This document shows positions 5,328 through 55,863 of a stretch of 64,000 nt of DNA, piece after piece. The notes beneath the pieces were generated by a model. That model worked only from the letters and a program-made list of their open reading frames with translations, ran no database searches and was not told the DNA's origin. The position numbers and the translations under genes are program-made. This stretch comes from an uncultured Gammaproteobacteria bacterium (GTDB lineage Bacteria > Pseudomonadota > Gammaproteobacteria > SZUA-229): the NCBI GenBank assembly GCA_963721085.1, contig CAVRHW010000026.1, positions 12,302-76,301 of the forward strand, given 5' to 3'. Numbering within the stretch: the stretch's first letter is position 1; each line of letters begins with the position of its first letter.

Positions 5328-5628
5328 AGCCGTGAACTTTTCAGCGAGGCTGGCCACTAAAGTCAGCGTCGAGCATGCATGATTAAGGTATCGAAAATCA
5401 GGGAAGTGTTTTTGTAAGGCGTGCAATGAGTTAGTGCTGTAAGGGCTTTATTATAAGCAAATCATAATAGACTAATAAAATGCTTAATGGCATCAATGTC
5501 TTGCATCTGCACTGCAATCTGCATTACATTACTCGACCGTTTCGCTGTTCAGGGGAGGATTATCTGTTGTCCAGATCATTCGTCAACCAGGAGCGGGAAC
5601 AAATGACATTAAACAGGAGAGTAGTAGC

Positions 5629-6555
5629 ATGATAGAAATGAATAAAAAATTATCGGCGCTTGTTGCCGTCGCTTTGCTAAGCGTCAGCTCGACAGTGATC
5701 GGTGCTGAGGCCAAAATGATGCCTTTCATTCTGGGGTCAACCAGTGCAGCTGGTGACATTACTGCAAAAGCCACAGAAGTTAAGAAAGCACTTACAGATA
5801 ATGGTTTCCAGGTTGTTGGGGAATACACACCATATGAGGGTGCTGATGTTATCGTCGCCACCAATGACACACTGAAAAAAGCGGGTGCCAGCCATGATCG
5901 TGCCGGTTATGTTGCTGCAGAACGTGTTTCTGTAACCAAAGTAGGTGATCAGCTTCAGGTGGCTTATACCAACCCACCTTACATGGCTGCTGCGTATCAC
6001 GTAAAAGCAGATCTTTCCAGTGTGACCAATGCGCTGAAAACTGCGCTGGGCAGCATCAAGGGATTTGGTCCTGACGAAGGTAAAACAGCTGATCAACTCG
6101 AAGATTACCATTACACCTTCGGCATGGAATACTTCGATGAGCCTTACAAACTGAATTCTTTTGATAACCACGCAGATGCCGTTGCTGCTGTTGAAAAAGG
6201 TCTGGCCAAGCACGCTGGTGGTACGACCGAAGTTTACCGTATCGATATTCCAGGTGGTAAGCAGACTCTGTTCGGTGTAGGTCTTCATTCCGAAAAGAAC
6301 AAGTATGCAGACGACAAGTACATCATGTCAGAAATCGACTTTAAGAAGATTCGTTCAACGCCTCACCTGCCATATGAAATGCTGGTAACAGGCGGAAAAG
6401 TCGAAGCACTGCATGCGCGTTTCCGTATTGCAATGGATTTCCCTGATTTGAGCATGATGGGATCTCACAGCTTCATGAATATCATGCCCACACCTGACGC
6501 AATCAAGAGTGCGCTGACTGAAGCTGCTGGTGGCGAAGTAAAATCAGATTTCTAA
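5629..6555 (+). CDS. secreted protein of unknown function
   Basis: 308-aa ORF with signal peptide KKLSALVAVALLSVSSTVIGAEA and its own terminator. No motif recognised. Confidence 0.6.
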   Translation: MIEMNKKLSALVAVALLSVSSTVIGAEAKMMPFILGSTSAAGDITAKATEVKKALTDNGFQVVGEYTPYEGADVIVATNDTLKKAGASHDRAGYVAAERVSVTKVGDQLQVAYTNPPYMAAAYHVKADLSSVTNALKTALGSIKGFGPDEGKTADQLEDYHYTFGMEYFDEPYKLNSFDNHADAVAAVEKGLAKHAGGTTEVYRIDIPGGKQTLFGVGLHSEKNKYADDKYIMSEIDFKKIRSTPHLPYEMLVTGGKVEALHARFRIAMDFPDLSMMGSHSFMNIMPTPDAIKSALTEAAGGEVKSDF

Positions 6556-14077: not shown

Positions 14078-14150
14078 GCCATCGCATTCCGGCCGTGCGC
14101 ATTCCACCGTGGTTTAATAAAGCACTTGCTTTAAAAACAGGGAACCAGGT

Positions 14151-15257
14151 TTGACAGCAAAAAATCAGAATCGAGTACTTGTTATTTACAGCGGCCTGGT
14201 TGTGGTCTTGCTGGTCATTCTGGTGCTCGTCTCCAGGTCACCACAAAAGCCGTCACAAAACCCACCGGATGAATTGACTGTTCCGTTACCTTCACTGGGA
14301 CCCGGGCCGATAACACTGCGAGTGGCGCACGTGGTTAATCCGCGTTTCCCGGCTTTGAGTCAGAAACAGCAGGCCGAAGTGCTGGCCAAAACCCGAGCGC
14401 TGGTAAAACAGAATTTTCATCTCGATGTTGAATTCAGCCATCCGGTAGAACTCGAGATAAAAGACTTTTTTGCCCTGCGCAATAAAAGCATCGATGCAGA
14501 ACTGAAAAAACGTATTGTTGATACAGCGTCTCTGACTGCGGCCGATCGTGACGATATGCGGGCGAGTATTTATAAAACGCTGAGTCACTACAAGGATGAA
14601 AACAACAATATTGCGGACTATGCGCGTCCGTATCTCACAAATTCTTTTGTGGGTGACGATCTGCATCAATTGTCCGGTGCGCTGGTAGATACCCTGCTCA
14701 CGCGCCTGAATTACTGGCGAGAACAGAAGGCAGCGGATGGTAATCCGGTGCTCGATGGCTCGCCGTATAACCAGTGGGTGTGGTGGGATGCTATCGGCTA
14801 TGGCCATTTGCCTTATGACGTGGTGATTACCAACCAGCTGGTGGCGAGCGTAGAGACCTATGGTATGGATGTGCATTCTTCCTTGCGAGGTGGGATTTCT
14901 GCAGGCACGACCAGTTTTAATAATCAGGGTAAATTTAAAGCCTACAGTTTTGTCACCAGCTTTCCCATGCTGAACGATAATCCTGTGCTCAGCCAGTTGC
15001 GTGGCGACGAGCATTACAGCGAAGCGCAGACCAGTGATTATATCGCCGCGGTTCTGGCCCACGAACTGGGGCACCTGTTACTGCATCTGGGGCATCCTTT
15101 TGGTAGCGAAAGCTGTCTCATGTCGCCGGCGCCCCTGCTGCGATTTCGCTCCTGGTACGATCACTTCAATCCCGCGCTGTGCCCGCTGGGAAGCCAGCCG
15201 CAGATGACACCGGGTGCCGCGACTCTGGATTATCGAGCCGACTGGATAGCGCCTTAA
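14151..15257 (+). CDS. membrane-anchored putative zinc metalloprotease (archaemetzincin-like motif)
   Basis: N-terminal TM helix, then [23 protein letters not shown] ... ALCPLG near the C-terminus. Confidence 0.55.
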
Positions 15258-20567: not shown

Positions 20568-20663
20568 ACGCCAAGTGTAGCATTTGTCTTTTTATATGCC
20601 TGTTTATCTTCTGGTTAATCGAGTTTAATATTGCTGTGTCACTTCAGGGAACAGGAGGGTGCT

Positions 20664-21281
20664 ATGGCCATGATCAATTCAAAATTTCTCTGCTTGCTGC
20701 TGTTAGTGCTGCCAGCGACCAGTCAGGCGGTTGTTGTTCGCGCTGACTATGTAGTCAGTTTTTTTCCGCCCAGTCCCTGCAATGACACCTTGCTGGGGGA
20801 TCTAACGAACACAGGCATGAATGGTACGCTGCAGTTCTATTCCCAGAATGCCGACGGTGGTGATCTGGTGGCTCAAAATCCAGGCCCGCCTGTGATCAAC
20901 GATCTCGCCTGTGGTGGTCGCCTGGCGGGGACGTACACATTTGATCTGGATCTTGCAGGCGGTGCGCAATTACTCTCGCTCAGTTTTGACGGTTCATTAG
21001 TCGCTACCAATCCGGGGCCGCCGACCCTGCCGTTGTATGCTTTCCTGCCGGGCAGCGATGTTCGCATCGCACCCGATACTGCACCAGTATTGCCACTTGG
21101 ATTAATCAGTCTCGAGCAAAACCCGGGTCCTCCGGACTTGCCGTTGTATGCCTTCGACAGTACGGGGCAGGAGATGGGTTCATTGCAGGTCAGTTTTAGT
21201 GTTGTACCTGTACCGGGCAGCATTGTATTGCTGGCTTCGGGGATGATGCTTTTGCTGGGGTTTGCGCGGGCTCGGTTGTAG
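20664..21281 (+). CDS. secreted protein with three NPGPP repeats and a VPxP-type C-terminal sorting-like tail
   Basis: Signal MAMINSKFLCLLLLVLPATSQA; motifs QNPGPPVINDL, TNPGPPTLPLYAF, QNPGPPDLPLYAF; C-terminus VPVPGSIVLLASGMMLLLGFARARL. Confidence 0.65.
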   Translation: MAMINSKFLCLLLLVLPATSQAVVVRADYVVSFFPPSPCNDTLLGDLTNTGMNGTLQFYSQNADGGDLVAQNPGPPVINDLACGGRLAGTYTFDLDLAGGAQLLSLSFDGSLVATNPGPPTLPLYAFLPGSDVRIAPDTAPVLPLGLISLEQNPGPPDLPLYAFDSTGQEMGSLQVSFSVVPVPGSIVLLASGMMLLLGFARARL

Positions 21282-21420
21282 CTGCTGTAATTAAGTTAAA
21301 CCTGTATATGCAAAATTCATCGGAACCTGTTGATTTTTAAAAAAACGGGGGTTATGATTTGCTGCATCAGGCCATGCCTGTCCTTGACTGAAATAAAATA
21401 ATAATATCGCCGAGGCAAAA

Positions 21421-21650
21421 GTGAAAAAAATATTCGATAGTTTCTGGCAGCGCTTTGCCAATGTTGAGGAGCAAGCTGTTGCACTGGATGAACACACCAT
21501 TGCACTGCGCACGCTCAAACTCAGGCTGATGCCAGCCGGGATGAAATCACCCGCAGCTACCGCGAACTGGCGTCTCGCTACCATCCAGACAGGGGTGGTG
21601 ATACCGAGACGTTTATCAATATTCGTCGCGCGTATGAGTTGTTGAGATAG
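21421..21650 (+). pseudogene. small J-domain protein with a frameshift near 21530
   Basis: Frame 1 gives MKKIFDSFWQRFANVEEQAVALDEHTIALRTLKLRL. The -1 frame gives DASRDEITRSYRELASRYHPDRGGDTETFINIRRAYELLR (HPD motif). The J-domain frame has no start codon of its own. Confidence 0.6.
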
Positions 21651-21701
21651 TATTGTGATGGTGGGCTGTTTGGCGCATTCTTGAGCCCTGTCCGTCTGAT
21701 T

Positions 21702-21733
21702 GTCATCCCCGAGTGTTTGTGTCGGGGATCCAT
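21702..21733. repeat. GTCATCCCC...GGGGATCCAT hairpin repeat, adjacent to element copy 1
   Basis: GTCATCCCCGA-gtgtttgtg-TCGGGGATCCAT. The same hairpin family occurs at 44020-44052, 45197-45227 and 41521-41595. Confidence 0.7.
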
Positions 21734-21774
21734 GTCTTTGTTTACATTGGTGGCATGTGGGTTCTCGCACCCAC

Positions 21775-21964
21775 GGGCGAGTTACTTTTTCTCTACAGCA
21801 ACAAAAGTAACCAAAAAACGCCGCCCTACACAACTTGCCCTTCGGGTTCCCGATCCACAGCACTTTGCTAACGCGCCGGTTTGACGCGCTGTCCTGCGCG
21901 CAAACCTGAATCAGGCGTCCTGCCTGATTCGCGCTACCAAAGTGACTGTGGCTCGGCAAGCTGT
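21775..21964 (-). ncRNA. structured RNA candidate, copy 1 (divergent) of a three-copy family
   Basis: Same architecture as the copies at 44066-44301 and 45283-45479, with compensatory stem changes. Hairpins GAAUCAGGC-AGGAC-GCCUGAUUC and GGUUUG/CGCGC-AGGACA-GCGCG/CAAACC. Confidence 0.6.
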
Positions 21965-22048
21965 AAGGGGGAATTTAAAAACGCTTTTTTTAGAAATGTA
22001 ATAAATAAAGGTGGTGGAGGAAATCTATGGCTAACGTAACTTTATTTG

Positions 22049-22438
22049 TTAGCTACTGACTACAGCGCCAATTAATTTAAACAAATTAAAAAGGTTATAA
22101 AATGTGCAGGCAATTTCGAAGTAGCCGCCGAAATCTTCGACGACATCTCCGAATGGGCCTAATATGCTGAAACTGCCGCGATATTTTTCAGCACGATCCT
22201 CTATAACTGCCGTCATTACATCCGCAATGCTGCCAAATATATTTCCAAAATTGTCTTCAGCTTCGATTTCTAGATCAAGGTTATTTGATTTAAGAAACAC
22301 AAAAAACTCAAACATAAGAAAGAATATAAATACAAAGCCAATTCCAGGGTATACAGTATCCTCTAATATTTTGGGGCTACTCAGGTTTACATTTGCCAGG
22401 GCATAAGTGCATATCGCTATTAATATTGCTCGTATCAC
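22049..22438 (-). CDS. small membrane protein of unknown function (AT-rich islet)
   Basis: 129-aa ORF with N- and C-terminal hydrophobic segments. Confidence 0.5.
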   Translation of the reverse strand: MIRAILIAICTYALANVNLSSPKILEDTVYPGIGFVFIFFLMFEFFVFLKSNNLDLEIEAEDNFGNIFGSIADVMTAVIEDRAEKYRGSFSILGPFGDVVEDFGGYFEIACTFYNLFNLFKLIGAVVSS

Positions 22439-22504
22439 CTGATTATTTGCTCTTTGAATTAATCGTTATATTCCCAGCTAAGTCAATGAAAGTACCGTGC
22501 GCGC

Positions 22505-22879
22505 TTAAAGCTCTTTTGAAAAAAAACGTTTAATGAGTATTGGGATGGAGCAGCCGAAACCGATGCCCAGGATTATCCGTGTATAGCCGAGAATAACCAC
22601 ACCGACACCTGTTGAAATATCAGTGCTGCGACTCATAATGGCTGTCTTGGTAGTTATAAATATGATCCCTGTTTCAATAAAATACTTACTTGCAAATCCC
22701 ATGGCAATCACTGCCAGGATAAGCGTGACAGGGGAGGTTTTGGGTTTTTCTTCACTCTGGTTGAATATTACTTCTTCTCCCTCAACGGCTATATTGTAAG
22801 AGGAGCAATTAGGACATTTGTTTTTTTTGTCCTGCTCTTTCAGTGTGTAATTACAGTCTCTGCAAATATATCTTGTCAT
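22505..22879 (-). CDS. zinc-ribbon protein with C-terminal TM helices
   Basis: CRDCNYTLKEQDKKNKCPNCSS (CxxC...CxxC) followed by 2-3 hydrophobic helices. Confidence 0.55.
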   Translation of the reverse strand: MTRYICRDCNYTLKEQDKKNKCPNCSSYNIAVEGEEVIFNQSEEKPKTSPVTLILAVIAMGFASKYFIETGIIFITTKTAIMSRSTDISTGVGVVILGYTRIILGIGFGCSIPILIKRFFSKEL

Positions 22880-22978
22880 TTTGTCCTCGATATATCGTTC
22901 TAATGTTTAACCTGTTACTGGAGAGGTGCTCAACGCCCCTGTTTTTTAGATGGATGGATAACAGGGTCATAGGTTTTT

Positions 22979-23278
22979 CTAGAAAAAAAGCCATGCCAAA
23001 AACTTATATTGTGCAGTAATAATAGTTGCGCAAATAACGAAGTATCCCAAGCCTTTTAGATTGTCCCATTGCTCATCAGTAGATGCGTTGTCCCAGTGAT
23101 GGCTGCCGACACTGTTAATGCAGTCGTTTGCGTCATCTTCTGAACCAAAATATTGAATAGCGGCCCACCAATATGTCGGAATATTGATGAACGTTAGTAC
23201 AAGAAACGCATCAAGATGATCTGTGCCGAATCCAAAAATAGACAACAGGATGGTTGCCGAGGCCACAGGTAGCAGCAT
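22979..23278 (-). CDS. small membrane protein of unknown function
   Basis: 99-aa ORF with three hydrophobic segments, in the AT-rich islet. Confidence 0.45.
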   Translation of the reverse strand: MLLPVASATILLSIFGFGTDHLDAFLVLTFINIPTYWWAAIQYFGSEDDANDCINSVGSHHWDNASTDEQWDNLKGLGYFVICATIITAQYKFLAWLFF

Positions 23279-23397: not shown

Positions 23398-23949
23398 CTA
23401 GTGAACGTCCAGTTTACCGAGCTCGCTGAGTATTTGAGTGATAAGCGATTCACCCTGTGGGCCCATGCGGGTGCAGAGCTGGTCGGCATTGCGGTTGCCG
23501 TCGATCATGTCCTTGAGTACGGCGCCGAGGTTGGCCAGATCACCGCCCGCGTTAGACATTTGTTCGGCCATACCGCCTAGCATGATGACCGCATTGTGGT
23601 CGCCGCGGCTGGCTTCGTTGATGAGTTTTGCCAGCATCGGCGCGGCCTTGGTGGCGTCGCCTTTTTGCTCGGGGTCGGGCAGGGTGCTGGGGTCCTGCAG
23701 GCCGAGCAGGATGGATTCGGCAATCACCTGGTCTTCGTCGTCCAGGCCTTTTAATAAACTCTGGTCGCGACTGCCGGCGATAATTTTGCGAATCACCGCA
23801 ACCAGGCTGCCCCAGCCGTTTTGTTCGGACATCACCAGCGCCTGCTCCATATGGGGCCGCACTTCGGGCTGGTGTACGGCCTGCACCACACCGAGAATCA
23901 GCCCCGCGTGGGTGAGTCGAATCTGCTCGCGTTTTTCCGGTGTTTCCAT
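23398..23949 (-). CDS. hypothetical protein
   Basis: Track ORF 23398..24006, with the start moved to METPEKREQ. Composition matches the core genome. No motif recognised. Confidence 0.5.
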   Translation of the reverse strand: METPEKREQIRLTHAGLILGVVQAVHQPEVRPHMEQALVMSEQNGWGSLVAVIRKIIAGSRDQSLLKGLDDEDQVIAESILLGLQDPSTLPDPEQKGDATKAAPMLAKLINEASRGDHNAVIMLGGMAEQMSNAGGDLANLGAVLKDMIDGNRNADQLCTRMGPQGESLITQILSELGKLDVH

Positions 23950-35935: not shown

Positions 35936-38900
35936 TTACTGCAGCCAGATCAGCTGTTGTGAGGCAGTAAATAACACTCCGGTTTTGATCGTGTGATTCG
36001 GCCATAAACCCTGTACCCCTTCACGATATAAAGCCAGCTGCCGGGAAAACGCCTGGGCTGCAGACGCGGCCACTGACGGGTCGTCAAACTGGTGGGTTTT
36101 GTAGTCCACCAGCAATATTTCTTTTTCGCTCACGACCAGCCGGTCGATAATCCCGTACACATCCTGGTTCTGATATTGATCCTGGTGCCGATACAGAATC
36201 GGCAGCTCGTTAAACGCCTGCGCGTTGTGCGCCTGAAAAATAGCAGTGCACGCTGGACTGGTGATGGTGGTGCGCGCTTCTTCGCACCAGGCGCGCAGTC
36301 GCTCATCCTGTTCCGGGATACAGAATTCATTCCGCCAGTTGTGTTGCTGAGCGCAGGGCCATCAATGTTGCGCGTGCACAGCAGTTCGAGTGCGCGATGA
36401 ATTACCCGCCCGCGCAGTCGCGCATCAACATCTTCGATCGTGCCACTGTGCTCTGTCGAGTGATCGCTACGGCTGGGTGCGATGCTCATAACCGGTCGCG
36501 GCAACTGGGTGAACGGACGACGCAGCTGGTCGAGTAGCTGCGGATCAAAATCGATCCGGGCTGGAACGCTGGCCGGGTCAGTGCGTTTTTGAACACCGCT
36601 GTCAGGATCACCCACGCTGTAACGCATCACGTCTTCAGGATCGGCATCGCTGAGTGTTTGCATGCCTTTTTGCAGCAGCGTTGGCCAGCGACCAGTGCGA
36701 CTACTGCTCGCGCCCGAAATATATAAAAACTGGCGCGCACGCGTGATCGCGACATACAGCAGGTTCAGATTTTCACGTTCCTGCGCCAGCGCCCTGTTTT
36801 GCTGTATCGCACTGGTGATGCTGTCGGTATTCGCCCGGCTCAGGGCGAGCTGAAAAATAGTGGGACGCGCACTTTCCGCAGGCCAGTCGACCAGCGTGCT
36901 GTAGGCATCATTATGACTGTTCGCACTGTTGCAGTCGGCGAGAAAAATAACCGGTGCTTCCAGACCTTTGCTGCCATGAATCGTCAGAAAGCGCACACAG
37001 TCAGGACTGTTGTTCACCGGTTCATCGGGCGCGCTGTCATCGGACTGGCGCAAGGTGCGCAGGCGGTGCAAAAAATGCGTCAGGCTTGGATAACGACCGC
37101 TGTCGATATCCAGCGACAATTCCAGAAACGAATGCAGGTTCGCGCTCACGCGTTGTTGCTGATCGTCCGGCACCGATGCGTGATAGCGTGCAATGATATT
37201 GCCTTCGGCAAAAATACGGTCGAGCAAATCGTGTACCGGAATGGTATCCGCCAGTGCGCGCCAGTTTTGTAACAGACGCGCTGCACGCGCCAGCGGATGC
37301 GTGCCGGCAAATGATTCGGCGATGCTCAAAAGCCGCGGATACCAGCGCTGTTTACCGGGCATGCTCGCCAGCGTGATCAGGTCCTCATCGCTGGCCGCGA
37401 AGATCGGTGATTTCAGTACCTGCGCCAGCGCCAGGTTGTCGAACGGGGTGATCAGGGTATCGATCAGTTTTTCCATGTCCTGGATTTCAAGATTCTGCAA
37501 CAGGCTTCCGCGCTGGCTGCCAATGAATGGAATCTGCTGGCGACGCAATGCATTTTCATACGCGGCGATATGGGTACGATTACGGCTCAGAATCAGAATA
37601 TCACCGTAGCTGGCTTTGCCGCTGTTCACCAGTTGGGTAATTTCAGTCCGCGATCCATTGTGCTTCTTTATCGTGTGCGCTCGGCGGCGCATCGGGTCTG
37701 GGTTGTAACAGCGGATTGCGCAAACCGGTCAGTGTGATGTCTTCGACCTCGTCGGGCTCAAACAGAGGCATCAGGGTGACACTGCCGGGTAATTGTTTCA
37801 GATGCGTGTCGTGCCGGCTGAAGCCGGGCAGGTGTTGTCTGATTTCATCGCTATCGAATACCGCATTGACATAATCGATGATCGCGGGTGATGAGCGTCG
37901 GGACGAATCCAGTGGTGCAGAAACCGCGTTAAGATGTTCTGCCAGCCAGCTGGATGCCTGTGCCTGCAGGGCCGGGTTAGCGCGTCGAAATGCATAGATC
38001 GACTGTTTTTCATCGCCGACCAGAAACACGCTGCGCCAGCGTGCTGCTTCAGCCGGCCGCCATTTCTTCCAGCAACGGTGCAAGCAAATGCCATTGCGTG
38101 GGATTGGTGTCCTGAAATTCATCGATCAGGATATGGTCGATGCGTTGATCGATTTTGTACTGCACCCAGAGCGCATTGTCAGAACTGTTGAGCAACTGAT
38201 AACAGTTCCATTCCAGGTCGGTGAAATCGAGCAGGCGTTGTTCGCGTTTCAGGCGCTGAAAGCTATCGATCAGACGCGCGCCGGCAAAATACCAGGCACA
38301 ATTGATTCTGACACTCTGCTGACGCTGCTGTTGGTCAATGCAGGTGAGTATTTGCTGGCAAATCAGTTCGTGCAGCTCAAGAAAACGCGTTTCACCGTCC
38401 ACACCCATGTTTTTCTGCTGAGACTTGCTGGATTTGCGCGCACGCGGCGTGTTTTTTTCTGTCAGAAAGGCGACACGTATTTTATTAAAGTCGCTTAAAT
38501 CGAATTCTACGCGTTCTGACACGCTTTCGATCAATGCAGCGTGTTTTTCATTGGTTGCATTGCTGTGTTTGCGCAACAAAATCGCGAATTCGCGTAAATC
38601 TTGCTGCATGAGTGTATTAAAAAACTCGACAAGCGGATCCATCGTGTTGTCGAACTGCAAATGTGCCTCAAGGGTGTTCTGCGCGAACAACACCGGGTCG
38701 CTCTGGTGTTCGGTATAGGCCCACCAGTCGCTGCGATGATCGAGCATGCTGAACAGCGCAGTGCGTGTGTTTGCCGGGCCGTTGGCTGCAATCATCAACA
38801 CATCCAGCGCGGCTGCAAGTTCGTCATCGGGTGTGCGCGTGGCTTCGGCGAACAATGCTTCCCAGGCCTGTTGCATTAACAGACCGGGATCATCGAGCAG

Positions 38901-39428
38901 TTCAAAACCGGGCGGGATATCGGCTTCCAGTGGAAACCGCGACAGTATGTCCTGACAGAACGAATGAAAGGTATTCAGTCGCACCGGGTACAGCGCGTGT
39001 AGCAGTTGTTCATAAAGACTGCGCGCACGCGAGAGCGTTTCCTCTGAGGTGTCGGCATCGATTTGCTGTAACAGCGCCCTGAGTTCTTCGGTTTCGACCG
39101 TGGCCATCTGGTACAGCCGGTCGCGCAGACGCAACTGCATTTCGGCAGCGGCCTTGCGGGTAAAGGTCAGTGCCAGAATCGTGCCGGGTTCGGCGCCCGC
39201 GAGCAGCAGGCGCACGATCCGCGTCACCAGCAGCCAGGTTTTGCCGCTGCCCGCAGAGGCCGATACCGTGGCATTGATCTCGGGGCGGGTGGCGATCAGA
39301 CTCGGATCTGGCTGGGTATCAGGGCTGGCTTGCATGCCGCTTAGCATATAGCTTTCGCGACTGTGAAGAAACTGCTCTATCAGAGCTGTAACAATGTTCG
39401 GGCGATGCAGTACAATGCGGCTTTCCAC
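35936..39428 (-). pseudogene. UvrD/AddA-type helicase fused to a PD-(D/E)XK nuclease, broken by three frameshifts
   Basis: Walker A SASAGSGKTWLLV (ORF 38049..39428), VGDEKQSIYAFRRANP (37643..38122), helicase C-terminal half (36130..37692), and nuclease motif GIIDRLVVSEKEILLVDYKTH (35936..36160). Frame joins lie near 38050, 37645 and 36335. Confidence 0.8.
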
Positions 39429-41700: not shown

Positions 41701-43955
41701 ATGACTGACCAGACCAAAATTGATTTTGAGCACATAGAACAGCAGCCGATGTCGGTGTTCACCGAGAGGGCCTATCTCGATTATTCGATGTACGTGATTC
41801 TCGACCGCGCCTTGCCGTTTATTGGCGATGGTTTAAAACCGGTGCAGCGGCGCATTATTTACGCGATGTCCGAGCTGGGTCTGTCGGCCGGCACCAAGCA
41901 TAAAAAATCGGCGCGCACCGTCGGTGACGTGCTGGGTAAATACCATCCCCACGGTGACAGCGCCTGTTACGAAGCCATGGTGCTGATGGCGCAGCCGTTT
42001 TCGTATCGTTATCCGCTGGTCGATGGCCAGGGCAACTGGGGTTCGCCGGACGATCCAAAATCCTTCGCTGCGATGCGTTACACCGAATCGCGGCTCGCGC
42101 CCTATGCCGAAACCTTATTGAGTGAACTGGGGCAGGGCACGGTGAAATGGACGCCGAACTTCGACGGTTCGCTGGAAGAACCCGAATGTTTGCCCGCGCG
42201 TTTGCCCAATGTATTGCTCAACGGCGGCACCGGTATCGCGGTGGGTATGGCCACCGATATTCCACCGCACAATCTGCGCGAAGTCGCCAGCGCCTGTGTG
42301 CATTTGCTGGATGATCCCAAGGCCACGCTCGCCGATATTTGTAAACACATCAAGGGCCCGGATTTTCCCACCGAAGCCGAGATCGTTACGCCGCGCGCCG
42401 ATATCAAAGAACTGTACAAAACCGGCCACGGCAGCATTCGCCAGACGGGCGCGTTACGAAATCGAACACGGTGATGTGATCATCACCGCGCTGCCGTACC
42501 AGGTCTCGGGCAATAAAATCCTGGAACAGATCGCGCAGCAGATGCTGGCGAAAAAACTGCCCATGGTCGAAGACCTGCGCGATGAATCCGATCACGAAAA
42601 CCCGACCCGCCTGGTGATCGTGCCGCGCTCCAACCGGGTCAACATCGACGAACTGATGAACCATCTGTTCGCCACCACCGATCTGGAACGCAGCTATCGC
42701 GCCAATCTCAATATGATCGGCATCAATGGCAAGCCGCAGGTGAAAGACCTGCGCAGCCTGCTGGAAGAATGGCTCAAGTTCAGAACCGTCACCGTGCGCC
42801 GTCGTCTGCAATGGCGGCTGGATAAAATTACCGCGCGCCTGCACATCCTCGAAGGCTTGCTGGTCGCGTTTTTGAATATCGACGAAGTCATTGCCATCAT
42901 CCGCGAAAACGACAAACCCAAACCGGTGCTGATGAAACGCTTCAAGATCACCGACATTCAGGCCGAAGCCATCCTCGAATTAAAACTGCGCCATCTCGCC
43001 AAACTCGAAGAAATGAAAATTCGCGGCGAGCAGGAAGAACTCGACGCGGAACGCAAATCACTGGAAGCGCTGCTGGCTTCGGCCAAACGCCTGAAAACCC
43101 TGATCCGCAAAGAAATCATCGCCGATGCCGAAAAATACGGTGATGATCGACGTTCACCCATCGTTGCACGCGAAGCTGCGCAGGCGATGTCGGAAACCTC
43201 GTTGATTTCCAGCGAAGCGATCACGGTTGTGTTATCCGCCAAAGGCTGGGTACGCGCGGCCAAAGGCCACGAAGTCGATGCCGCCAAACTGGGATACAAG
43301 TCGGGCGACTCCTTGCTCGCCACCGCCCAGGGCAAAAGCAATCAGCTCGCGGTGTTCCTGGATCGCAGCGGACGCGCTTACACGCTTGCCCGCGCACAAA
43401 CTGCCATCGGCGCGCGGCCAGGGTGATCCGCTCACCAGTTATTTCACCCCGCCTTCAGGCGCGCAGTTCGTGTCGGTGGTGATCGGTGAACCGGATGAAA
43501 TGCTGTTGCTCGCGAGCAACTTCGGTTACGGTTTTGTCGCCAAACTCGGTGATCTGCACGCGCGCAATAAAAACGGCAAGGCGATACTCAATGTCGGCAA
43601 GCAGGCAAAAGCATTACAGGCGGCAAAAATTTCCGATCTCGACAGCGACCGCATCGTCGCAGTCAGTTCGGAAGGCCACATGCTGGTCACACCCGTCGCC
43701 GATCTGCCGCAGATGGCCAAAGGCAAGGGCAACAAGATCATCAATGTGCCTTCGGCCAAACTCAAGTCCGGTGAAGAACTCATCACTGCGATGACCGTGG
43801 TGCCGGCCGAATCGAAACTGGTGGTGCACAGCGGCAAGAAGTTCAAGCAGATGAAACCGGCAGAGCTGGATGCGTTTGCAGGGGAGCGTGGGCGGCGTGG
43901 GCTGAAGTTACCGCAGGGCTATCGCAATGTGGACAGGTTTGAGGTGACGGATTAA
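41701..43955 (+). pseudogene. parC: DNA topoisomerase IV subunit A interrupted by two 1-nt insertions (about 42440 and 43388)
   Basis: Three consecutive +1 frames: 41701..42474 (..[16 protein letters not shown]..), the part of 42209..43426 from [30 protein letters not shown].., and the part of 43227..43955 from [19 protein letters not shown]... Colinear with ParC as I recall it. Confidence 0.9.
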
Positions 43956-44019
43956 CTGCACAGCAGCTAATCCGTCATCCCCGAATCGGACTAATTGGCT
44001 GGGATCGAATTGAACGTGT

Positions 44020-44052
44020 GTCATCCCGGTATGCTTTTTAGCCGGGATCCAT
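44020..44052. repeat. GTCATCCC...GGGATCCAT hairpin repeat, adjacent to element copy 2
   Basis: GTCATCCCGGtatgctttttagCCGGGATCCAT. Confidence 0.7.
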
Positions 44053-44065
44053 ATTTTTAATCATT

Positions 44066-44097
44066 CAAAATCTAAAAGCGCGGGTGGTTGACCCGCA
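44066..44097 (-). terminator. Rho-independent terminator (minus strand) at the end of element copy 2
   Basis: Minus strand reads GCGGGU-CAACC-ACCCGC followed by GCUUUUAGAUUUU. Confidence 0.6.
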
Positions 44098-44301
44098 GCA
44101 AGTCACTTTATTTTGCTTGCCCAAAGAAAAGTAACCAAAAGAAACGGCACCCCAACAGCTTGCCCCATGTAAAAAACACATGGGGTTCCCATGTCACAGC
44201 ACTTCGCTAACGCGTCGTCTCGATGCGCGTCCTGCGCACGAGACTCAATCGGGCGTCCTGCCCGATTGCCGCTACCGAAGCACTGCGACATGGCAAGCTG
44301 T
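44066..44301 (-). ncRNA. structured RNA candidate, copy 2, with its own promoter and terminator
   Basis: Minus-strand fold: P1 ACAGCUUGCC/GGCAAGCUGU; a 16-bp P2; hairpins CAAUCGGGC-AGGAC-GCCCGAUUG and GUCUCG/UGCGC-AGGAC-GCGCA/CGAGAC; hairpin CCCCAUGU-GUUUUUU-ACAUGGGG; a U-run; hairpin GUUACUUU/AAAGUGAC. Terminator at 44066-44097. Confidence 0.65.
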
Positions 44302-44307
44302 AAGGGG

Positions 44308-44336
44308 ATTTTAAAAACGCATGTTTTCAGAAGCAA
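44308..44336 (-). promoter_or_regulatory. sigma70-type promoter of RNA copy 2
   Basis: Minus strand: TTGCTT (44336-44331), 17-nt spacer, TAAAAT (44313-44308). The predicted start falls at the first base of P1. Confidence 0.55.
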
Positions 44337-44389: not shown

Positions 44390-44719
44390 TCAGGCAGCTT
44401 TTGATCTGGTAGAAATGGCTTTTGCCAGGTCTTTTTGCGAAGCGCCCAGTGCCAGCAAAGATTTGATGAGAAGATCGATTGAAACCGATGCGGCACCGGT
44501 CTCCATTTTCGCCACTCTGGACTGGCTGGATTTGATCATTTTTGCAAAAGCATCCTGACTCAAACGTTTACGTTTTCTCAACTCTTTAAGGCTGTGGCTC
44601 AGAGACATTTTCATTTCAATGAATGTTTCTTCTTCAGGAGTCAGGCCCAGGAAATCAGCAGCTGTGCCAACCTTCCAGCCTTTTGCTTCCAGCTTTTTAC
44701 GTTTGGTCTGTTTCATCAT
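44390..44719 (-). CDS. higA: HTH (XRE-family) antitoxin, HigA-like
   Basis: 109 aa: LSQDAFAKMIKSSQSRVAKMETG helix-turn-helix. Overlaps the toxin gene by 23 nt and lies downstream of it. Confidence 0.75.
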   Translation of the reverse strand: MMKQTKRKKLEAKGWKVGTAADFLGLTPEEETFIEMKMSLSHSLKELRKRKRLSQDAFAKMIKSSQSRVAKMETGAASVSIDLLIKSLLALGASQKDLAKAISTRSKAA

Positions 44720-45038
44720 AATCTCTCAATCTGTCTTTACATACATCGATGACATTTTTAGGTGTTTTAGCGGTTTTCTTTTCAAACACTTCAAGAATGA
44801 CTATTGCATCGGTATCAATTCTGTACACGATTCTCCATGTTACATTTCTATCTGTAATCCGAAGTTCATGGCACCGTTTTCCAATGACAGGCATTGGCCT
44901 GGATTGCGGCAGGCTTAATATCTCGCCAATTTGCAGCTTTCGCAGCAGAAAGCCAGCCTCAATACGGGCTGCAGGAGAAAAGGGAGGTGTCTTTATCTCA
45001 CCATGCAGCCAGACAACAGCCTTGTCTATTGGATCCAT
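44697..45038 (-). CDS. higB: RelE/ParE-superfamily toxin, HigB/Gp49-like
   Basis: 113 aa: VVWLHGEIKTPPFSPAARIEAGFLLRKLQIGE ... CHELRITDRNVTWRIVYRIDTDAIVILEVFEKKTAKTP. The toxin-first order is typical of higBA. Confidence 0.75.
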   Translation of the reverse strand: MDPIDKAVVWLHGEIKTPPFSPAARIEAGFLLRKLQIGEILSLPQSRPMPVIGKRCHELRITDRNVTWRIVYRIDTDAIVILEVFEKKTAKTPKNVIDVCKDRLRDYDETDQT

Positions 45039-45196
45039 AGTGGAAAAGTATATGTCAGATATGACATATTTTCAAGTATGCGGCGCAATAATCAACGGGC
45101 ATTGCGCCGCATCGATCGATCTGCTGTCATCCTCGAACGATTCTGTCGAAGATCAAGTGTAGGTTGGGGTGAGGTACACGACGATCCCAGCGTGTC

Positions 45197-45227
45197 GTCA
45201 TCCCGATACGCTTTTTGTCGGGATCCA
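45197..45227. repeat. GTCATCCC...GGGATCCA hairpin repeat, adjacent to element copy 3
   Basis: GTCATCCCGAtacgctttttgTCGGGATCCA. Confidence 0.7.
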
Positions 45228-45282
45228 TCCATGTTTAAATTCACACTTAAGGGCTCTTTGCGCGTGTTAAATCGCAGCACTG

Positions 45283-45479
45283 CGACTTTATTCTACAGCA
45301 ACATAAAAAGTAACCAAAAAAATGCCGCCCAAACAGCTTGTTCCATGCAAACAACGCATGGAATTCCCATGTCACAGCACTTCGCTAACGCGTCGTCTCG
45401 ATGCGCGTCCTGCGCACGAGACTCAATCGGGCGTCCTGCCCGATTGCCGCTACCGAAGCACTACGACATGGCAAGCTGT
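45283..45479 (-). ncRNA. structured RNA candidate, copy 3
   Basis: The core is nearly identical to copy 2. One P2 substitution (C to U on the minus strand) converts a C-G pair to U-G. Hairpin C is replaced by UUCCAUGC-GUUGUUU-GCAUGGAA. Confidence 0.6.
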
Positions 45480-45637
45480 AAGGGGAGTTAAAAAACGCGT
45501 GTTTTCAGAAGCAAAGATTGACAGCATTAATCTGCAGCCCAAGCTTTGGGGTTGGTAAAATCGTTATATCATTAAACCTTCACAAACAAGTCTCAGAGGG
45601 TTAAAGTTCCTTCTCATGCTTGTGTTAACCATAAGGA

Positions 45638-54987: not shown

Positions 54988-55863
54988 TTACAGATAGGCA
55001 TTTATTTCTTCACCGGGGTTAGGCAGGCCAGCAATACGCCAGGCTTTGCTGCCGTTGTTATCGAATAGACGTTCCATGCAGTAGTGGTCTGGCTGTTGTG
55101 CGGATTCGCATAATTCCTTGAAGTTGGGTACGTGCTGGTGTGTCTGATAGTACTGACGTAATGCGTAGATGACTTGCCAGCGTGCTTCGTTTAATTCGTC
55201 CAGGCCTTCCTGCTTCGCCAGCCACTGTGCGATTCGTTCGTTCCATTCATCGGGGTTTTGTAGAAAGCCTTCAGTATCCATTTCTACATCGGGATTAAAA
55301 TTGTCAAGGTCATCACTCGGGATCTGCTGCACCTGTCTGTGAACACCTGAAACGTCCTGCAGCATTTTTTCAATAGCTTCACAAAATGCATTCAGATCAT
55401 TCGGGCTACGTGAGGTGATCAGGTTGTCGTCCAGCACCATTTCTTTATCCACCCAGTTTGCGCCCGCATTGATCAGGTCGGTTTTGATCGACGGCCATGA
55501 GGTCAGTGTTCGGCCTTCAAGACTATTGGCTTCGATCAGTAATTGCGGGCCGTGACAGATTGCGGCAACCGGTTTATGGCTGTTCATAAAAGTACGGACA
55601 AACGAGACGGCATCCTGGTCGATGCGCAGGTGGTCAGGGCTGTAACCGCCCGGGATGAGCAGGGCGTCATACTTGTTCGCATCGGCACTATGGGTAGAGA
55701 CATTGATTTTTGCAGCCGACTTTCTGTTTTTGCCGTCTATTCTGCTTTCGGCGTGTGTCCCTATTACGTCAATTACATGTCCGGCCTGTTTGAGGCGGTC
55801 ATATGGCACCTGGTATTCAGCATCTTCAAAGTCTTTGTCTAAAATGATTGCAACTTTGGCCAT
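54988..55863 (-). CDS. fusion protein: DJ-1/PfpI (YhbO-like) domain plus DsrC/TusE-like domain lacking the C-terminal Cys
   Basis: N-terminal half: KVAIILDKDFEDAEYQVPYDRLKQAGH ... KPVAAICHGPQLL. C-terminal half: DTEGFLQNPDEWNERIAQWLAKQEGLDELNEARWQVIYALRQYYQ ... WRIAGLPNPGEEINAYL. Confidence 0.75.
   Translation of the reverse strand: MAKVAIILDKDFEDAEYQVPYDRLKQAGHVIDVIGTHAESRIDGKNRKSAAKINVSTHSADANKYDALLIPGGYSPDHLRIDQDAVSFVRTFMNSHKPVAAICHGPQLLIEANSLEGRTLTSWPSIKTDLINAGANWVDKEMVLDDNLITSRSPNDLNAFCEAIEKMLQDVSGVHRQVQQIPSDDLDNFNPDVEMDTEGFLQNPDEWNERIAQWLAKQEGLDELNEARWQVIYALRQYYQTHQHVPNFKELCESAQQPDHYCMERLFDNNGSKAWRIAGLPNPGEEINAYL

Follow-up and report, generated by a model that had tools for sequence, protein, structure and literature searches.

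Compensated Helices and Accessory-DNA Placement of Three Divergent TwoAYGGAY RNA Copies in an Uncultured Gammaproteobacterium

Three Copies of One Structured Unit on the Minus Strand

The DNA analyzed here, referred to as the window, is a 64-kb stretch of contig CAVRHW010000026.1 from an uncultured gammaproteobacterium (lineage SZUA-229), and the element in question is a conserved unit of ~300 nt with a core of ~150–165 nt. When positions 21700–22000 were compared with the window by blastn, two more copies were found at ~44.1–44.3 kb and 45.3–45.5 kb, in the same orientation and with 74% identity. A cmsearch with our own covariance model, built from five related sequences, returned exactly three copies in the window, all carried by the minus strand. 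Their parts are listed below, with bit scores from this model.

21971..22000 (−): conserved, promoter-like upstream block of copy 1, TACATT-17 nt-TAAATT, then a discriminator-like CCCCC run
21819..21970 (−): core of copy 1 (127.5 bits) with helices P1, P2 and P3, hairpins A and B, a truncated hairpin C and the GGGAA junction (21847–21851)
21908–21930 (−): hairpin A of copy 1, loop AGGAC
21878–21906 (−): hairpin B of copy 1, loop AGGACA
21838–21846 (−): truncated hairpin C of copy 1, CCC-GAA-GGG
21702..21818 (−): 3' domain of copy 1, comprising a U-tract and hairpins D, E and F
21813–21818 (−): U-tract of copy 1
21780–21812 (−): hairpin D of copy 1, GGUUACUUUU...AAAAAGUAAC
21764–21781 (−): hairpin E of copy 1
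21702–21733 (−): hairpin F of copy 1, AUGG-AUCCCCGA...UCGGGGAU-GAC
44020..44336 (−): whole unit of copy 2, with TTGCTT (44331–44336), 17 nt, TAAAAT (44308–44313), the core (44145–44307; 192.8 bits) and hairpins D, E and F
44079–44097 (−): terminator-like hairpin E of copy 2, followed by CUUUUAGAUU and called by the terminator scan
45197..45514 (−): whole unit of copy 3, core 45323–45485 (186.4 bits)

The closing helix formed by P1 and P2 is ~30 bp long and surrounds a short conserved helix, UAGCG/CGUUA, which was identical in six of seven copies. Compared with shuffled sequences, the minimum free energy z-scores were −8.3 for copy 1 and −9.7 for copy 2.

Compensatory Base Changes Maintain the Helices

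A first-pass annotation, made from the sequence alone, had claimed that the divergent copy 1 supplies compensatory base changes for every stem of the fold. All helix sequences quoted there were found as written on the minus strand. Hairpin A pairs as GAAUCAGGC/GCCUGAUUC in copy 1 (21930–21908) and as CAAUCGGGC/GCCCGAUUG in copies 2 and 3, which amounts to two double compensations. The outer stem of hairpin B (GGUUUG/CAAACC versus GUCUCG/CGAGAC) shows three, with the bulged U retained, and its inner stem (CGCGC/GCGCG versus UGCGC/GCGCA) shows one. In P2, pairing is preserved by four double compensations and three wobble changes, and the sole difference in P1 is one G-U pair. The AGGAC loops and the segments GUAGCG, GCGUUAG and GGGAA are identical among the copies, as had been stated. 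The extension to every stem held for P2, hairpin A and both stems of hairpin B; it did not hold for P3, which is constant, or for P1, which has wobble changes only. Hairpin C, a third hairpin that the annotation had missed, has 9 bp elsewhere, and copy 1 has only a shortened form, CCC-GAA-GGG. The covariation of this hairpin is seen between copy 3 (UUCCAUGC/GCAUGGAA) and copy 2 (CCCCAUGU/ACAUGGGG), with three double compensations.

Between copies 1 and 2, 16 pairs are changed, ten of them by double compensation (four in P2, two in hairpin A, three in the outer and one in the inner stem of hairpin B), while five are kept by a single change and one is broken. Differences were found in 26 of 116 paired columns and in 4 of 30 unpaired columns. 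Thus, the stems vary more than the loops and junctions, and the latter are the conserved parts, as expected of an RNA that presents single-stranded nucleotides.

A metagenome scan with a stricter pattern yielded two contigs (L033 and L034), on which this subfamily is represented by four full copies and a truncated one, and the four full copies were combined with the three window copies. In this set of seven, 98.0% of the paired cells can pair, compared with 91.8% in shuffles, and changes on both sides occurred in 18 of 64 pairs (shuffle mean of 7.4), a level reached by none of 500 shuffles. These pairs are distributed over all five model helices. When the 3' partners were shifted by 1–3 columns as a control, only 0–3 such pairs remained, and a structure-blind MAFFT/RNAalifold analysis of five sequences gave 15 pairs with changes on both sides. 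Thus, the covariation check with added homologues that the first-pass annotation had proposed gave a signal that grew rather than faded.

G-U pairs make up 38 of 442 paired cells (8.6%), and several are fixed in every copy. Since they would be A-C mismatches on the opposite strand, the fold belongs to the minus strand; our model scored the reverse strand at ~16–22 bits and the forward strand at 127–193 bits. The fixed G-U pairs also make DNA-level palindrome correction an unlikely source of the compensation. The three copies are a strand-specific structured RNA family whose helices are kept through compensation.

The Copies Belong to the TwoAYGGAY Family

The only meaningful Rfam match, obtained with permissive filters on short stretches, was RF01731 (TwoAYGGAY). 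With a gathering threshold of 43 bits, copy 1 scored 44.3 bits, copy 2 37.4 bits and copy 3 36.6 bits. A whole-window Rfam scan at gathering thresholds gave zero matches, and all three copies were missed with the default filters, copy 1 being dropped even in a 500-nt stretch. TwoAYGGAY was catalogued in 2010 (Weinberg et al., PMC2864571) and belongs to Rfam's clan of Csr-Rsm protein-binding RNAs. It was reported from gamma-proteobacteria, Clostridiales and the human gut, was judged to be probably an RNA and not cis-regulatory, and its P1 was characterized as "often very large, e.g. 24 base pairs", a description that fits the window copies. The Stockholm alignment in the supplement of that study contains at least seven members from Psychromonas ingrahamii with their flanks.

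In the window copies, the loops of both hairpins read C-AGGAC-G, i.e., AYGGAY minus the first Y, and A-GGA-Y pentaloops are present as gapped rows of the Weinberg alignment (BAAX01027538, BAAW01000251). The 3' flank of copy 1, CGGCG-U-tract-GGUUAC...GUAACUCGCC, shares 86% identity over 50 nt with a P. ingrahamii TwoAYGGAY flank, CGGCA-U-tract-GGUUACU...UUGCUGUUGAGAAAAAGUAACACGCC. The shared flank, CGGCR-U-tract-GGUUACU...UUGCUGUWGAGAAAAAGUAACNCGCC, had an E-value of 4e-12 against the four sequences compared. A genome scan with the core pattern revealed the same architecture in many Shewanella species; besides chance matches, it returned only Shewanella and one Bermanella metagenome-assembled genome. 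The Shewanella type scored 26.4 bits with RF01731, and at Shewanella loci AGGAY pentaloop copies adjoin canonical AUGGAU copies, bridging both loop types. A structural alignment of the three genera was not achieved with MAFFT. Support across genera therefore comes from folds of the individual sequences, in which the window type, Shewanella and Psychromonas have P3, hairpin A and the bipartite hairpin B in common, although their stems are unrelated in sequence. Based on the RF01731 match, the flank homology to P. ingrahamii, the shared architecture and the mixed loop types, the window copies are assigned to the known TwoAYGGAY family as divergent members rather than to a new family.

The Bermanella genome belongs to another order, and its core (positions 5796–5887 of the locus), compared over 92 nt, showed 100% identity with the Shewanella main type, which suggests either a recent horizontal transfer or a binning contaminant.

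Promoter-Like Block and 3' Domain

An alignment of nine copies and remnants gave the consensus TTGYTTCTGA-N7-8-GCGTTTTTAAAW-CCCC for the upstream block. In copy 2, this block reads TTGCTT-17-TAAAAT, followed by a C-rich discriminator, and P1 begins at the expected +1. From this arrangement, we infer that the block may act as a promoter. Copy 1 has TACATT (22000–21995) where copies 2 and 3 have TTGCTT, and TAAATT at 21977–21972; thus, its −35 box is weak, as the first-pass annotation had remarked, and it retains the −10-like hexamer and the remainder of the conserved block. The position of copy 1 just after the last gene of a low-GC islet, from which a 3' untranslated region had been considered, was also found as described, with the stop of that open reading frame (ORF) at 22049, ~50 nt upstream of the promoter-like stretch. 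Because no terminator-like site was found by the terminator scan between this stop and copy 1, and because the −35 box is degenerate, read-through from the islet into copy 1 is possible.

The structure drawn in the first-pass annotation ended too early, since three further hairpins follow beyond the U-tract, down to position 21702. This 3' domain is conserved in all window-type copies, and compensated changes are found in hairpins D and F. The base of hairpin D, GGUUAC/GUAAC, is conserved in sequence, and its distal part covaries. Hairpin E is variable. That of copy 2 looks like a canonical terminator, and that of copy 1 resembles one on the plus strand only, i.e., for the convergent gene. Hairpin F is flanked by AUGGAY and AUGAC. 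In Shewanella, a strong hairpin, GGGGAU-UGCUGUUG-AUCCCC, and the UUUU after it form the end of the unit, which suggests a transcript of ~255 nt that would end at this hairpin; the hairpin was not called by the consensus terminator scan. That the Rfam model lacks the conserved 3' domain, and that the conserved unit is about twice the length of the model, is a new point.

Short variants of the unit were observed on both metagenome contigs (L033, 300–400, minus strand; L034, 1010–1100, minus strand). They consist of the promoter-like block and CCCCTTACAG, followed by an unrelated REP-like hairpin (GCGCAAT...ATTGCGC-CGGATG) that replaces the RNA core, and stand immediately upstream of a full copy. 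A CCCTTACAGCAC match in the window near position 5445 (minus strand; ~5400–5480) resembles these remnants and is too weak to be called a fourth copy. Beside the upstream block of copy 1, at 22010–22060 on the plus strand, a strong Shine-Dalgarno sequence, GGTGGAGG, precedes a 10-codon ORF, MANVTLFVSY, which is antisense to the last islet gene at its 3' end; this ORF is probably due to chance.

Genomic Neighborhood of the Copies

Judged by ValS, the closest named relatives of the window host, with ~75% identity, are sulfur-oxidizing symbionts, Sedimenticola and Thiodiazotropha, and the window contains a DsrC-like gene (54988–55863). Two relatives from the locus collection (L035 and L043; ValS 94% and ParE 96% identical) were used for comparison. 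The features that accompany the copies are as follows.

22049..23278 (−): low-GC islet directly upstream of copy 1, with ORFs at 22979–23278, 22505–22879 and 22049–22438
44390..45038 (−): higB-like (Gp49/DUF891) gene and helix-turn-helix XRE-type antitoxin gene, identified by Pfam, between copy 3 and copy 2

The islet has a GC content of 37–41%, compared with ~50–57% in its surroundings. Its ORFs gave no informative Pfam match (one sub-threshold match to HypA) and no PADLOC match, and they are orphans in the protein database. In the relatives, no unit is present at either orthologous locus, and higBA is likewise missing from their orthologous parC locus. At the first locus, homology to the relative ends at 21657 and resumes at 23400, and L035 has three different genes in place of copy 1 and the islet. 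At the second locus, homology ends at 43959, 4 nt beyond the parC stop, and no synteny is found from copy 2 onward. The following 10 kb hold higBA, copy 3, mostly ORFs without Pfam matches and one DUF2806/Abi-alpha-like ORF; thus, 44.0–54.8 kb of the window looks like an accessory island. Copies 1 and 2 lie 45–60 nt inside the edge of lineage-specific DNA, with the 3' end pointing outward and tail to tail with a core gene. This apparent placement of the units at the edges of lineage-specific accessory DNA is a new point.

Several further observations were made at these loci. A good promoter-like site of higBA itself (45047–45075, minus strand; TTGAAA-17-TATACT) overlaps a perfect palindrome, ATATGTCATATCTGACATAT, and ATATGTCATATCTGACATAT is likely to be an autoregulatory operator. 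A REP-like hairpin, ATGCGGCGCAAT...ATTGCGCCGCAT, lies just upstream of this site (~45080–45120). The genes for a UvrD/PDDEXK-type helicase (36130–39428) and for parC (41701–43955) are in two or three frames in the window and are single ORFs in the relatives (1131–1167 aa and 750 aa, respectively), so they are either pseudogenes or affected by assembly frameshift errors. A djlA-like gene (20631–21281, with a J-domain ORF at 21421–21645) is perhaps split too. In L035, the 118-nt spacer at the same convergent junction holds no copy 1 and has a single hairpin, GGCGC-AUGGAU-GCGUU, with a perfect AYGGAY loop (14150–14185, plus strand); remnant, independent CsrA-type site and chance are all conceivable explanations.

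Outward-Facing Pairs in Shewanella and Psychromonas

Seven Shewanella loci carry two copies (L002, L003, L008, L009, L011, L014 and L029). In all seven, the left copy is on the minus strand and the right copy on the plus strand, at a spacing of 0.8–3.1 kb. Three more outward pairs are found in P. ingrahamii (NC_008709; coordinates from the Weinberg alignment), giving ten in all, and no inward-facing pair was seen. The genes between the paired copies are small accessory genes, namely PDC-S06/AAA_13 (E-value of 2e-176), PDC-S31/DUF2971, DUF6236, DMP19-like and DUF5677; PDC-S06 and PDC-S31, which are candidate defense genes in PADLOC, occur in at least two cassettes. The orthologous loci L029 and L002 have both end copies in common and differ in cargo. 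In the window lineage, the copies are direct and stand in tight arrays with truncated copies and promoter remnants. On L033, a unit, a cbiM-like gene and a second unit lie on one strand, and one copy (L033a) is a mosaic of a copy-1-type core and a copy-2-type tail.

Candidate Functions

Each copy is interpreted here as a gene or transcribed module for a structured non-coding TwoAYGGAY RNA with a likely CsrA/RsmA-type partner, and we give this interpretation a probability of about 0.5. Two neighboring hairpins would be presented by the short conserved helix, each with a loop in which GGA is invariant and set within C-A(N)GGA-N-G. The two loops, ~21 nt apart, could be bridged by one CsrA/RsmA-type dimer, and extra sites are perhaps provided by a third GGA in the GGGAA junction and a fourth in the AUGGAUC sequence before hairpin F. 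Present in several copies, the RNA would titrate or recruit the regulator. CsrA/RsmE is known to have C-A-N-GGA-N-G, placed in a hairpin loop, as its recognition consensus. In the units, GGA was retained in every loop variant seen (AGGAC, AGGAG, CGGGA, AUGGAU and AAGGGAC); of the GGA motifs counted, two are located in loops, and the others belong to the GGGAA junction and to AUGGAUC. TwoAYGGAY has also been matched to a CsrA-site model (Gardner and Eldai, PMC4333381). Because the invariant GGA loops fit the consensus and because of this match, a CsrA/Rsm-binding RNA is favored. The downstream neighbor of the unit is consistently a convergent gene at the Shewanella loci, and likewise for window copies 1 and 2, an arrangement that speaks for a free-standing gene and against a 5' leader. 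The units would be transcribed from their own promoter-like block, with CsrA as the presumed partner.

Several points weigh against a CsrA-binding RNA transcribed in this way. The block of copy 2 matches only 8 of 12 consensus positions of the two hexamers (−35, 3/6; −10, 5/6), and a consensus promoter scan with a cut-off of 9/12 called the block in neither copy 1 nor copy 2. The U-tract lies 5–10 nt from the P1 helix. The RNA has 2–4 GGA sites, compared with 5–22 in known sponges. Upstream GacA/UvrY boxes (TGTAAG-N6-CTTACA) were matched at chance level only (25 versus 18 expected), and within copies 1 and 2 it was the CTTACA half-site, located at P1's start, that gave the matches. No csrA gene is present in the 64-kb window, and the partner is assumed to be encoded elsewhere in the host genome. 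In the literature, no experiment linking TwoAYGGAY to CsrA was found, and a 2025 paper calls the motif "relatively unexplored". Finally, a plain sponge role does not explain the constant placement at the edges of accessory DNA.

This placement is the starting point of another explanation, according to which the unit is primarily an outward-pointing end module (~300 bp) of mobile or exchangeable accessory-gene cassettes, with CsrA binding being secondary. It could serve as a transcriptional insulator or terminator towards the core gene, as an outward promoter, or as a recombination or homology handle for cassette swapping. The ten outward pairs, the small accessory genes between them, the end copies kept at L029 and L002 while the cargo differs, and the loss of homology to unit-free relatives at 45–60 nt beyond the 3' ends of copies 1 and 2 all fit such a role, as do the mosaic copy, the truncated copies and promoter remnants in tandem, and the hairpin E of copy 1 that is terminator-like for the convergent gene. 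However, the units are not accompanied by a transposase or integrase, they are without terminal inverted repeats of their own, no target-site duplications were seen by inspection, and the copies of the window lineage are direct instead of inverted. Furthermore, compensatory change accompanied by many G-U pairs, together with GGA loops that stay invariant, indicates that selection acts on a folded single strand displaying specific nucleotides, beyond what homology arms would need, and the pattern by which the Shewanella loci were ascertained covers one loop type. As the primary role of the unit, an end module is therefore a tentative possibility. The more specific proposal that TwoAYGGAY units are outward-transcribed end modules of hitherto undescribed small accessory/defense-gene cassettes, acting via RNA or folded single-stranded DNA, is rated low and appears unlikely, because recombinase, terminal repeats and target duplications are missing, because ascertainment relied on one pattern and because loop selection points to a trans-acting partner.

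Another explanation is a cis-acting role, in which the unit would control the stability or translation of the mRNA of adjacent accessory genes; CsrA or RNase III might, for instance, be recruited to the long helix. Copies 1 and 2 would act as 3' untranslated regions, following the islet and higBA, respectively, and copy 3 as a 5' leader that precedes higBA. The terminator-free interval from 22049 to copy 1 with its degenerate −35 box, the recurrence of gene-then-unit on the same strand in Shewanella pairs and the one-strand arrangement on L033 agree with this. It is nevertheless improbable: the motif was classed as not cis-regulatory by Weinberg et al., the neighboring genes are mutually unrelated, in each outward pair one unit invariably diverges from the cargo, every copy is preceded by a conserved promoter-like block, and the Shewanella unit ends in its own strong hairpin and UUUU. 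That the element is multi-copy, intergenic and very palindromic, with near-identical copies within Shewanella genomes, could also be expected of a DNA-level repeat, such as a miniature inverted-repeat transposable element (MITE) or a REP-like palindrome, which would have no RNA function and would owe its compensation to palindrome correction by template switching. This is very improbable in view of the G-U pairs, several of them fixed, which a corrected palindrome would turn into A-C mismatches in the other strand, and of the strong strand asymmetry of the model score. Moreover, the unpaired loop nucleotides are the most conserved positions, and the stems are wholly different between genera, with the architecture retained.

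Other identities were rejected. A single-stranded DNA promoter (Frpo/ssi) of a conjugative plasmid leading region does not fit the window, which is chromosomal (valS-holC-pepA/lptFG and parE-parC), and blastn of the unit against plasmids, phages and viral contigs gave no match. A small protein or leader peptide was discarded, since the overlapping ORFs (21291–21959, 21578–21733 and ATGGATCC starts) are not conserved; by inspection, copy 2 stops after 4 codons, and indels in the U-tract shift the frame between copies. With regard to ends of the MITE or insertion-sequence type, TTGCTTCTGA... and ...GGGATGAC are not complementary, and no duplicated bases were found in the flanks of the three copies by inspection.

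Implications

The covariation mainly confirms a structure already held by Rfam. What is gained is that the default Rfam pipeline was seen to miss a whole subfamily, comprising the pentaloop AGGAC variants of uncultured sulfur-oxidizer-like gamma-proteobacteria and the Shewanella type (26 bits). The longer unit, including the cross-genus GGUUAC hairpin, and the accessory-edge placement could advance an orphan motif after ~15 years. The outward pairs around small accessory cassettes in Shewanella and Psychromonas may be a further new point. Since these pairs are known in two cultured genera, CsrA titration versus a cassette end module can be addressed in Shewanella frigidimarina and Psychromonas ingrahamii. 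If the cassette explanation were true, a structured RNA would insulate the cassette, couple it to the CsrA network or serve as an exchange handle.

Comparison with Known Systems

Like ERIC/IRU, Correia/NEMIS and REP/BIME repeats, the units are dispersed, intergenic, strongly palindromic and biased in the transcribed strand; some of these repeats carry promoters or terminators, and they are often located between convergent genes. The units differ by protein-site-like conserved loops in a multi-branch fold, by a much lower copy number without terminal inverted repeats or target duplications, and by pairs that consistently face outward around cargo genes.

With integron attC sites, the units share a folded single strand that is conserved in structure over sequence, and, as in cassette arrays, they alternate with small accessory, toxin-antitoxin or defense genes and form direct arrays in the window lineage. 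However, the unit is ~300 nt long and multi-branched with a promoter-like block, whereas attC is a single bulged hairpin of 57–141 nt, and inverted pairs, as found in Shewanella and Psychromonas, never occur in attC arrays. By eye, no attC core sites (RYYYAAC/GTTRRRY) were found at the unit ends, and no intI was found among the neighbors scanned, the window not having been searched exhaustively for integrases.

[quoted passage not shown] The window-type units have far fewer sites (2–4), no upstream GacA/UvrY box, a long closing helix and a location at the edge of accessory DNA, and their binding is predicted.

Compared with described TwoAYGGAY members, the window copies have 5-nt AGGAC loops instead of 6-nt AYGGAY loops and an extra hairpin C and GGGAA junction within P1; copies 2 and 3 are below the gathering score, and the host, an uncultured sulfur-oxidizer-like gamma-proteobacterium, is outside the listed taxa. 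In common with them, the copies have two adjacent GGA-loop hairpins closed by C-G inside an AGC.../...GCGUYA helix and a very long P1, are gamma-proteobacterial and multi-copy, and share the downstream GGUUAC hairpin with the P. ingrahamii members.

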